This document shows, in pieces, positions 9,001 to 12,000 of a stretch of DNA of 23,278 bases. A program made the position numbers. The stretch lies in the IMG/VR virus record IMGVR_UViG_2547132127_000004. One strand, 5' to 3'. Source of the stretch: a virus (lineage: Duplodnaviria; Heunggongvirae; Uroviricota; Caudoviricetes). Positions within the stretch are counted from its first letter, which is position 1, and each line of letters starts with the position of its first letter.

Positions 9001-12000
9001 CCTCGTGTGTTTTTTTCCGCAAATAAATCAACGCGTATAGGCATGCTGTGTGGTCTGCTTGAAACGGATGGGTATGTCGAGAAGGATGGAACGCTTGTTT
9101 TTTCCTCAGCAAGTGAAGAACTGCGCAATGGGGTTGTTCAACTGGTTAACTCACTCGGCGGGTCATGCCGGACGCGAGTTAAAACTGGCGTGACATACAC
9201 ATACAAGGACGATAAGCAGCATGGGATGGATTCATACGAGGCAAGAATCAGACTGACAAGAGAAATCAGGGAGGCCATCCGTTCACCACGACTCAATGGC
9301 AGATTAACTGCGCATCGATTCGAGGGCTGTGGGGTATTCGTCAGGAATGTTGAAAAAATCGGCAATGCAGAATGCTTGTGTATTATGGTCGATCACCCTC
9401 GCCACCTGTATGTAACCAGGGGATATGTGGCGACGCATAACACCGAGGTTGTCGGGCATATGGCACTTGAGGCAATGCGTCAGGGTGTGAAGACGTGCAT
9501 CGCGTCACTTGAGCTGAAGCCTGGTATTCTCCTTAAGCGACTTACCCGTCAGGCAACGTGCTGCAAGATGCCGCCAGTGCTGGAAATTGACTCTGCATTT
9601 AAATTTTATGACGAAAGACTTTGGGTGTTTGGCCTGACTGGAACGGCGAAAGCCGACAGGCTGATCGAAATATTCGACTACGCTCGCCGCCGATACGGGA
9701 TCCAGTTATTCATCATCGACAGCCTGATGAAATGTGGCATAGGCGACGATGACTATAACGGGCAGAAGGCGTTTGTTGACTCGATTTGCGACTTCAAAAA
9801 CAAAACAAACTCCCACGTCATTCTCGTTACTCACTCGCGAAAAGGAGACAGCGAAGAAAAACCAACCGGGAAAATGGACGTAAAAGGCTCTGGAGCGATA
9901 ACAGGCCTGACAGACAACCTTTTCATCATCTGGCGTAACAAGGCTCGCGAGAGAGCGTTACAGAGAGTTCAGAGTGGTGAAAAGATGTCAGAGAAGGACG
10001 AACAGCTACTGGCATCTCCGGCATCTGTTTTGATGCTTGAAAAACAACGTAACGGCGAAGGTTGGGAAGGTGGTGTCCCGTTGTTCCTTGACGAGCAATC
10101 GCACCAGTTCCTGCAACTTGAATCAGGATCGCCATATAGCTACATCGCCAATATGCCGAAATCGGAATATGACGAGGCGTGGCGACAGGAAAACGTGACG
10201 GAGTATTAAATGACCATCTACATCACTGAGCTAATAGCAGGCCTGCTGGTAATCGCAGGCCTTTTTATTTGGGGGAGAGGGAAGTGAACGATAGCTACCG
10301 ACAGTTTGAAAACTGGTGGTCAAAAGACAAAAGCCAGTTCACAGGAGACGATGAATTAAAAGAGTTTGCCTGGGTGATATGGCAGGCATCGCGAGCAGCT
10401 ATTGAACTGGATATCGACTGGCCCGAATCGAATGACGACTTTTGGAAAGATGGTGAAGAAGGTGCTTATGCGATGGGGCATGAGGATGGGAAGGACAAAA
10501 CGGTAATTGCAGTAATGAAAGCTATCAGAGCCGCTGGAATTAAAGAGAAGAATTTTCGATGAAGCAAACAATCTTCCTCCGAACTAAGCAACAACAGCAA
10601 GCCGCAATAAATGCCATCCTCTCAACTCCTCTCGATAAAGACAAGCCAGTCACCATCCGCATTACTGACTACAAGCGAAATCTTGACCAGAACGCAAAAT
10701 TTCACGCGATGCTGGCGGATATCGCTCGTCAGGTTCAATGGTGCGGCAAATGGTTAAAACCAGAACAATGGAAGGTTTTGTTGATCAGCGGTCATGCAGT
10801 GGCAACAAAACAGGAAGCTGATGTTTTGCCCGGCCTTGAAGGAGAATGCGTCAACATTCGCGAAAGCAGCGCGCAGATGAGCGTGAAGCGCATGGCAAGT
10901 CTGATCGAGTACACAACAGCCTGGGCTATTGGTCAGGGTGTCAGATTTACCGACAGGAGGTATGAATGAGGCGACATCGACGAAGTTTCACCGACATCAT
11001 CTGCGAAAACTGCAAATACCTTCCAACGAAACGCTCCAGAAATAAACGCAAGCCAATCCCAAAAGAATCTGACGTAAAAACCTTCAACTACACGGCTCAC
11101 CTGTGGGATATCCGGTGGCTAAGACATCGTGCGAGGAAATGACTATTTATCCGGTGCGCCGCCAGAATGACGGCGCGGTGTGGTTAAACGAAGCGGATCT
11201 GGAGTTTTTTTCCAGTAGCGCGGGCGAATTTTTTTAGTGTGGCAAATGATGGGCCGCTGATACCTGATGCGAGATTACTTTCCATTCTGGTGATCGCGGT
11301 CGCTTTTGTTCCCATTCGCTCGGCAACTTCAGCCTGAGTTAAGCCAGCTTCTTTGCGTGCTGCCAGCATTTCATCAAGCAGTGCGAATTCGTCAGCGATA
11401 GCGTCGTATTCTGCTTTAAAAGCCGGGTCTTCCATCCATTTGGCTGCCATTTCGTCGTGTGTCATGGTGGGGAGAGTGCGTTTACCAGTCATGCTTAACC
11501 TCCTTCATTCTGGTTTCAGCTTTCTTGCGTTCGGCTGGCGGTGTTTTCTGCGCTTTCTTTACAAAACTATGCAGCATGATGATGCGTTTCCCTGTCAGAG
11601 TGCAGTAAAAAACACGCGCGATCCCATCGTTGCCTTTAATTCTGAGTTCGAAAAGCCCGTCACCAAAGGCGCTGGTGTGAGGTTCTCCGAGATTGCTGCC
11701 GTATACCTTCATGCGTTCAACAAGATGCTGGTATCTGGCACGCATACTCAATGGAAGCTGATCGACCTCCAGTCGGACCTCTTCACTGTAGTATTCGATA
11801 GTGTAGTTCATACAGCAAAACATAACAAAATCGTTATATCTGCACAATATATTGATTCTGCAATTTCGGGACGTTACACTGTCTCTGCACCTTATAAAGC
11901 GGGGGCCGGGATTGGCGTCCTGAAATTCAATATAGAGCATAACCGCGCTCATGCGGTTTTTTCGTGTCATGAGCATTGCTACGCCCAAATTATGGTGGGG

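Follow-up and report, generated by a model that had tools for sequence, protein, structure and literature searches.

A predicted Gp49/Tad-type toxin-antitoxin cassette in a decaying lambdoid prophage of Shigella flexneri, with a putative operator-promoter unit and leaderless toxin transcript

The protein gp49 of phage N15 has given its name to a family of small toxins, and a gene pair of this kind is the subject of the present analysis. It occupies positions 11184-11811 on the minus strand of a stretch of 23,278 nucleotides (nt) of tailed-phage DNA (IMG/VR virus record IMGVR_UViG_2547132127_000004), referred to here as the window, and is carried by a defective, decaying lambdoid prophage of Shigella flexneri. 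We consider it probable, at roughly 85%, that this pair is a functional type II toxin-antitoxin (TA) system of the Gp49/Tad type with an RNase as its toxin. The gp49/gp48 pair of N15 and tad-ata of the Paracoccus plasmid pAMI2 are cited as stabilising TA systems in two papers (PMC2701414; PMC5906591, citing Dziewit 2007), and a third reports that deletion of the homologous genes of SXT did not destabilise SXT (PMC2654960). The tad-ata group combines a Gp49 toxin (PF05973/COG4679) with a helix-turn-helix (HTH) antitoxin of the COG5606 type. A toxin-first gene order is typical of the Gp49/Tad-Ata family (PMC5906591, PMC11980606), and Table 1 of PMC11980606 classes Pfam Gp49 among the toxin-first families that degrade mRNA in a ribosome-dependent manner. 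The window pair resembles N15 gp49/gp48 in its toxin-first, overlapping genes, its XRE-type HTH antitoxin and its carriage by a temperate phage, with an identity of 45% over 91 amino acids (aa) for the toxin (BLASTP E 3e-26) and 38% over 74 aa for the antitoxin (E 2e-15). It differs in an overlap of 11 nt as opposed to 1 nt, and N15 gp49 possesses an AGGAGG Shine-Dalgarno sequence and lacks the TAAC-N6-GTTA palindrome described below. Moreover, N15 is a plasmid prophage for which the use of a stabilising system is obvious, whereas the window copy resides in an integrated and defective lambdoid prophage.

Both window proteins find their best match among solved structures in the same complex, HigBA of Streptococcus pneumoniae, the toxin by sequence in chain A and the antitoxin in chain B (HigA) of 6AF3. 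The catalytic E, R, F and K of this system (6AF3, 6AF4) align with the window toxin, but identity in the structural alignment is 18-19%, the locus is a chromosomal one in a Gram-positive organism and its control region is unrelated. HigB1 of Mycobacterium tuberculosis, an mRNA endonuclease of the ribosomal A-site, shares the Gp49-like RelE fold, the long C-terminal helix and seven pocket equivalents; it belongs, however, to TAC, a three-part system with a SecB-like chaperone, and the equivalents of its residues K58 and N73 are changed in the window toxin. The canonical HigBA systems (P. vulgaris Rts1; E. coli K-12 HigB/YgjN) likewise consist of a toxin-first operon with an HTH antitoxin and a RNase of the RelE fold, but fall into other Pfam families (PF05015, PF09907), and the label 'HigB' can be given to the window toxin by analogy only. 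In paaR2-paaA2-parE2, from a cryptic lambdoid prophage of E. coli O157:H7, a TA system of the RelE/ParE superfamily has a leaderless first gene (PMC8630535). That system differs in having three components with the regulator first, the antitoxin before the toxin and a toxin of the ParE type, and its leaderless start was determined by 5' RACE, whereas that of the window toxin is a prediction.

The pair consists of two small, co-oriented, neighbouring open reading frames (ORFs) in one operon. The toxin gene comes first (11482..11811, minus strand; ATG 11811-11809, TAA 11484-11482; 109 aa) and is followed by the antitoxin gene (11184..11492, minus strand; ATG 11492-11490, TAA 11186-11184; 102 aa), the two overlapping by 11 nt at 11482-11492 (ATGACTGGTAA). 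A Shine-Dalgarno sequence for the antitoxin, AAGGAGG, can be read on the same strand at 11499..11505, 6 nt before the ATG and within the toxin codons K-E-V. The toxin-first order, the overlap and the strong antitoxin Shine-Dalgarno sequence had been noted in the initial annotation and all are found at these coordinates. A search returned 2292 homologues; among relatives in which both genes could be delimited the toxin-first overlapping arrangement is universal (79/79), and an SD-like motif precedes the antitoxin in 77 of these 79. A mechanical ORF list prolongs the toxin ORF to a TTG at 12156. The 109-aa start is preferred because the Gp49 domain of Pfam begins at residue 15 of this form and because the PGAP annotation of E. 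coli RMDEC465 has the same start. In TUM9812, EC11, POCJ13 and 75/02 Stx the toxin is annotated at 76-87 aa, but tblastn finds the full 109-aa ORF intact in each, and the short versions are probably start-site misannotations. A 276-aa ORF runs antisense to the toxin (window 11353-12183, plus strand), and the genes called 'Rha' or 'ash' by PGAP in TUM9812 and EC11 start inside it; the related coordinates for this ORF and for the shortened toxins are 6527-7528 in locus L002, 3027-3845 in L014 and 6332-6595 in L003.

Profile searches were positive for both proteins at a strength well beyond chance, as would be expected from the description of the pair in the initial annotation as a small RelE/HigB-like toxin with an XRE-HTH antitoxin. 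The toxin matches Pfam Gp49 (PF05973, within the RelE/ParE superfamily) with an E-value of 3.2e-25 and a score of 88.4 bits against a cut-off of 23.9, over profile positions 2-90 of 90. Gp49 alone was reported, the canonical HigB profiles PF05015 and PF09907 giving no match to the toxin at E <= 0.01 in the Pfam search. The NCBIfam search of the pair returned sub-threshold matches only, among them TIGR02683 (RelE PF06296, Vibrio HigB2-type), for which the toxin reached 19.8 bits against a cut-off of 62.85. In PHROGs both the toxin and the antitoxin fall into phage families. By these profile matches the toxin is placed in the Gp49/Tad-Ata branch of the RelE/ParE superfamily and not in the canonical HigB family. 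Since the canonical profiles gave no match, 'HigB-like' describes a working mode and not a family: as a working mode the initial label HigB/HigA-like agrees with 6AF3 being the best structure for both proteins, but as a family assignment it does not stand. Vibrio HigB2 was considered as a Gp49 member and closest relative and was dropped, as it belongs to PF06296 (PMC11980606, Table 1) and its fold match is weak. The antitoxin carries an XRE-type HTH at residues 44-98 (HTH_3, E 3.4e-11) preceded by an N-terminal segment of about 40 residues without a domain match.

An AlphaFold model of the toxin (pLDDT 91.8, pTM 0.85) displays two helices, a four-stranded sheet and a long C-terminal helix at residues 92-108, that is, the RelE/BECR fold with the long C-terminal helix found in Gp49-like toxins. 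A Foldseek search of this model gave TM-scores of 0.71-0.77 to HigB (6AF3/6AF4) and HigB1 (7AWK, 7NBU), followed by YafQ, RelE and YoeB, with weak matches to HigB2 of V. cholerae (E 0.014) and HigB of P. vulgaris (E about 0.09). A profile of 43 sequences of the toxin family also matches M. tuberculosis HigB1 (7AWK/7NBU). ParE has the same fold as RelE, the weaker matches include ParE2 structures, and the NCBI name 'RelE/ParE family toxin' leaves room for a gyrase poison of the ParE type in place of an RNase. That the toxin is such a poison is nevertheless hardly credible, given that all nine fold matches with E <= 0.001 are RNase toxins (HigB, HigB1, YafQ), that the ParE entries have E > 0.03 and TM-scores of 0.44-0.53, that the FxKxxQK catalytic motif of HigB1 is conserved and that Gp49 is listed as mRNA-degrading in the table cited above.

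The catalytic pocket bears on the same question. In a profile alignment, seven of the nine pocket residues of HigB1, E66/R68/R77/F93/K95/Q98/K99, align with E55/R57/R66/F83/K85/Q88/K89 of the window toxin, the roles of the HigB1 residues being taken from PMC9098466. All seven but Q88 are invariant in the 43-sequence family alignment, the FxKxxQK motif is complete, and the window toxin keeps every one of the 31 family-invariant residues (31/31). The retention of the invariant columns together with this motif favours an active RNase toxin.

The region upstream of the toxin is unusually compact. It was compared initially in 10 related loci and then in 81 loci (one genome per species; beta- and gammaproteobacteria), and the 81-locus consensus takes the form TTg - 8 nt - TAACAtATTTGTTA - t.AT. 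In the window this corresponds to three predicted elements. A -35 element TTGTGC (11842..11847, minus strand) is located at the mosaic joint described below, 17 nt upstream of the -10 element; its TTG is conserved, the three letters being present in 58, 59 and 49 of the 81 loci and being kept across four E. coli/phage contexts that diverge further upstream. A palindrome ATAAC-N6-GTTAT (11822..11837; core TAAC-N6-GTTA at 11823-11836) forms a predicted operator. Its half-sites are matched at 8/8 positions in 66/81 loci, compared with 0/1620 shuffled controls, and in 67/81 loci it ends 10-11 nt from the start codon. An extended -10 element TGtTATGTT (11819..11827, minus strand; TG 11827-11826, TATGTT 11824->11819) overlaps the right half of the operator and ends 7 nt before the toxin ATG. 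Across the family this distance is 6-7 nt to the start codon, and the extended -10 consensus TGnTAtnAT is close to invariant at its T (80/81), A (79/81) and final T (80/81).

Between the -10 element and the toxin ATG of the window there is no Shine-Dalgarno sequence, and an SD-like motif precedes the toxin in only 1 of 65 loci. Without such a motif, and with a -10 element that ends 6-7 nt from the start codon, the toxin mRNA is predicted to lack a leader: transcription would begin at 11812 or 11811, no more than about one base from the toxin ATG, so that the message would be leaderless or nearly so, with predicted autorepression at a site overlapping the -10 element. Precedents for leaderless first genes in TA loci are provided by paaR2, referred to above, and by three Synechocystis loci (PMC4963859); literature searches found no study of leaderless Gp49 toxins. 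We hold this leaderless and operator sub-model to be an even bet or slightly better.

Recognition of the palindrome by the antitoxin is suggested by co-variation between the two. The common half-sites TAAC/GTTA accompany a recognition helix beginning MGTKA (64 loci), while the rare symmetric variants go with altered helix starts (VS, ST/TS or TH instead of TK): TAGC/GCTA with MGVS in 4 loci, TACC/GGTA with MGST or MGTS in 3, and GAAC with MGTH in 2. The pattern speaks for direct binding of the putative repressor to the palindrome, but it is suggestive and not proof, since the variant classes are small and partly related. The operator/extended -10/leaderless design and the operator-helix co-variation were not found described before, and both are offered as predictions. 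Whether the 109-111-aa Gp49-HTH subfamily as a whole, several hundred loci in beta- and gammaproteobacteria, shares a fixed control unit in which the operator is fused to the extended -10 element and the start codon forms the 5' end of the mRNA is in our estimation an evenly balanced question.

Taken together these features outline how the pair may work. The N-terminal segment of the antitoxin would bind and neutralise the toxin, and a dimer of its HTH domain, seated on TAAC-N6-GTTA across the extended -10 element, would repress the operon. When transcription does proceed from 11812/11811 the toxin would be translated inefficiently from a leaderless mRNA and the antitoxin from its strong internal Shine-Dalgarno sequence, and the antitoxin would thus be kept in excess in spite of the toxin-first order. 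Loss of the antitoxin would then release the toxin to cleave mRNA and arrest growth. Addiction to the element, stabilisation and abortive infection are all candidate pay-offs. As the element is defective, the proposal in the initial annotation that such a module stabilises the prophage has little meaning here, and the simplest account may be that of a selfish, self-promoted addiction unit persisting in a decaying prophage.

A number of observations weigh against this account, in respect both of the toxin and of its control. Two of the nine HigB1 pocket residues are not kept (K58 is replaced by S47 and N73 by D62), and absence of such residues goes with a lack of toxicity in HigB2 and HigB3, two further Gp49-type proteins of M. 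tuberculosis (PMC9098466). A Gp49-domain toxin of Synechocystis has been reported to be ribosome-independent (PMC4963859), and ribosome dependence of the window toxin is an assumption. No experimental study of this orthologue was found in literature searches. Judged by consensus the promoter is a weak one, with 7/12 positions matched over TTGTGC and TATGTT combined, and it escaped the promoter scan. The GC-rich hairpin downstream of the antitoxin (11156-11176) lacks a U-tract. Finally, 17/81 relatives start with GTG, a codon that serves poorly for initiation on strictly leaderless mRNAs in E. coli, and for this reason a leader of a few bases is equally possible. The scan did return a site on the minus strand at 12018->11989, but this was rejected as a TA promoter: one site was found where 1.6 were expected, and it lies inside the C4 gene.

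The altered pocket also bears on the possibility that the locus is an inactive relic, in which a non-toxic Gp49 protein of the HigB2/HigB3 kind accompanies an HTH protein acting as a small prophage transcription factor, the toxin homologue serving perhaps as co-repressor. The state of the prophage is in keeping with decay. Two direct copies of IS600 (named after the PGAP annotation; about 5821-7090 and 20107-21380, with ORFs of 272 aa and 100 aa), with 99% identity across the 300 nt compared, flank 14.3 kb of DNA in which the TA pair lies. Of the integrase ORF (4889-5965, minus strand), 48 codons lie inside the left copy, which truncates the gene by about that length, and the Pfam arm-binding domain is cut at the matching point. 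There is no immunity region between the integrase and the primase-helicase in the window, and the Rha gene carries an amber codon. The pair itself shows a different picture: both ORFs are full-length and intact, all 31 invariant residues are present, and dozens of S. flexneri assemblies encode identical proteins, while inducible Stx phages encode versions with 94-95% identity. In addition, the positions of S47 and D62 vary across the whole toxin family and are not lesions specific to this copy. An inactive relic is therefore improbable, and a functional RNase-type TA system remains the preferred reading.

The pair forms a self-contained accessory cassette of about 690 base pairs (bp; 11156-11847). 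In an alignment of its four contexts, those of the window, RMDEC465, TUM9812 and POCJ13, conservation was confined to the interval from the hairpin at 11156 to about 11845. This hairpin, GCGCCGCCAGAATGACGGCGC (11156..11176, minus strand), begins 8 nt after the antitoxin stop codon, folds as a nine-bp stem in minus-strand RNA (z -1.9) and is present in all four contexts, which diverge beyond it. As a canonical intrinsic terminator it was rejected for want of a U-tract and on its z of -1.9, and it is retained solely as a conserved element marking the 3' border of the cassette. At the other end, megablast alignments break off at 11839 and 11849, a short way upstream of the toxin gene. Left of this joint the window follows a lineage with a toprim primase-helicase, NinB and NinE (RMDEC465, 97%), and from 11849 rightwards it follows another (98-99.5%) that carries Rha, an O-like protein, a DnaC-like protein and DnaB. 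The TA unit ends exactly at the joint of two prophage lineages, in agreement with the initial annotation, which had placed the module where two replication modules meet; its location 'inside the nin region' needs correction, in that the nin region borders the pair but is truncated, and the pair stands at its end, after NinE. Base composition does not mark the cassette as foreign, because GC content is 0.45-0.52 throughout, without contrast between cassette and flanks.

NCBI lists the exact toxin sequence under the name 'type II toxin-antitoxin system RelE/ParE family toxin [Shigella flexneri]', with 33 contigs carrying it, and the exact antitoxin sequence is found on at least 1000 public contigs; S. 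flexneri assemblies show the same gene context as the window. Two Shigella Stx phages, POCJ13 and 75/02 Stx, carry the cassette as well (94.5% protein identity), and phage PhiR5_2 has a copy that is 72% identical and annotated as HigB/HigA. In 31 of 5426 complete E. coli genomes the cassette was found, always on the chromosome. Such rarity counts against anti-phage abortive infection as the selected role in place of stabilisation, a proposal that concerns the role of the pair and not its mechanism: an infecting phage would deplete the antitoxin and the RNase would stop translation. A self-promoted cassette on the strand opposite the phage early genes is typical of morons expressed in the lysogen, and the toxin has a domain in common with the PADLOC defence protein NsnC, of which it matches the last 50 residues (E 4.9e-9, a partial match). 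No PADLOC 2.0 system model was matched by the pair, however, the other matches being weak and generic to HTH proteins, and no paper tying the Gp49 toxin family to defence was found in the literature searches. Abortive infection is a possible but rather unlikely selected role.

Upstream of the cassette the pair diverges from an antirepressor operon composed of isrK, C4 and Rha, all on the plus strand. The isrK RNA (11887-11963; Rfam 58.1 bits against a cut-off of 50) is preceded by a promoter-like pair, TTGATT at 11852-11857 and TACACT at 11875-11880 separated by 17 nt, which would give a start at about 11887, where the isrK match begins. It ends in a terminator, a hairpin with a T-run at 11941-11958; this terminator-like hairpin had been considered as part of the TA locus and was rejected as belonging to isrK. 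The C4 antisense RNA follows (11988-12075; 80.1 bits against a cut-off of 45) and then the Rha gene (12130-12693; PF09669), with its ATG at 12130. The divergent orientation of pair and Rha had been recognised in the initial annotation, but Rha starts at 12130 and not at 12259, and the space between is occupied by isrK and C4. An earlier view of 11812-12258 as a long non-coding spacer was abandoned in the light of the PGAP annotations of E. coli O121, TUM9812 and EC11, as was a 286-aa Ash-Rha fusion with its start lost at the joint, given the Rfam matches to isrK and C4 there; as the upstream stretch encodes these two RNAs, the ATG at 12130 is the better reading. Codon 18 of Rha is an in-frame TAG (12181-12183) in the window and CAG in E. 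coli O121, TUM9812 and phage mEp460, so that Rha is here a nonsense (amber) mutant. Gene callers omit or split Rha in S. flexneri assemblies. The layout is like that of isrK-orf45-anrP in Gifsy-1, where an antirepressor-like gene depends on a short RNA to turn its translation on (PMC4825925), and it also resembles immI of P1.

The TA and isrK promoters stand back to back with their -35 elements only 4 bp apart, and this raises the question of whether the module acts mainly on its neighbour, the antitoxin at 11822-11837 affecting the isrK promoter with its -35 element at 11852-11857. Genes of an antirepressor type (Rha, Ash-Rha, P22AR-C/KilAC, Ant-like or simply 'antirepressor protein') recur as divergent neighbours of the toxin in enterobacterial prophages, and this recurrence may reflect either a functional link or no more than a shared hot-spot for accessory genes. 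The same cassette with its operator lies beside unrelated genes in Methylospira, Photorhabdus and many betaproteobacteria, and the operator is centred on the -10 element of the TA promoter itself. Regulation of the isrK/C4-Rha operon as the main function is accordingly very improbable.

Several observations on the surrounding prophage are of interest in their own right. Pfam Ash (PF10554, E 3.5e-13) matches the translation of the isrK/C4 stretch (window 11875-12159, plus strand), and in E. coli O121, EC11 and TUM9812 PGAP annotates comparable stretches as 'ash family protein' or joins them to Rha. Part or all of the Ash protein family may represent a translated RNA locus; alternatively, this region may code for both, in the dual-coding manner of orf45. 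The isrK/C4-Rha locus and this match may be of more help to annotators than the TA pair. The toprim primase-helicase (7303-10209, plus strand) is 968 aa long, compared with 626 aa for an E. coli RMDEC465 protein that is 96-98% identical. The 342 extra residues (about 8419-9441) contain Hint and LAGLIDADG domains and interrupt the Walker A loop (GHGK / ACPLN...VATHN / TEVV). By these features the insert is taken as an intein with a homing-endonuclease domain, albeit with an unusual Ala-Cys N-terminal junction. Four tRNA genes lie in a row at 17217-17524 (plus strand), downstream of the Q antiterminator region, and a related prophage of E. coli O121 likewise has four (Ile, Arg, Thr, Gly). The closely related prophage of E. 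coli O121 strain 201805972 has, after its lysis genes, a further TA pair of unrelated type, a ParD-like antitoxin with a RelE/ParE toxin (10528-11062 of that locus, L013).

With regard to novelty, the pair is already annotated correctly in public databases and is ordinary; it is already known in kind, because identical proteins are annotated in NCBI. It represents one more prophage-borne type II TA system of a characterised family, for which the label Gp49/Tad-type ('HigBA-like') suffices. Its practical value lies in the correct 109-aa start, given that several phage and genome records give a toxin of 76-87 aa, in cassette borders that mark the recombination joint of two prophage lineages, and in a predicted leaderless-toxin and operator design that would explain antitoxin excess in a toxin-first operon. 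If this design is borne out, toxin output would be set by leaderless initiation of the 70S type and antitoxin output by the strong internal Shine-Dalgarno sequence, a built-in answer to the problem of stoichiometry in toxin-first loci, and the ratio of toxin to antitoxin could respond to conditions that favour leaderless translation. The co-variation of half-site and recognition helix would likewise constitute a small natural specificity code for the HTH family of the antitoxin.

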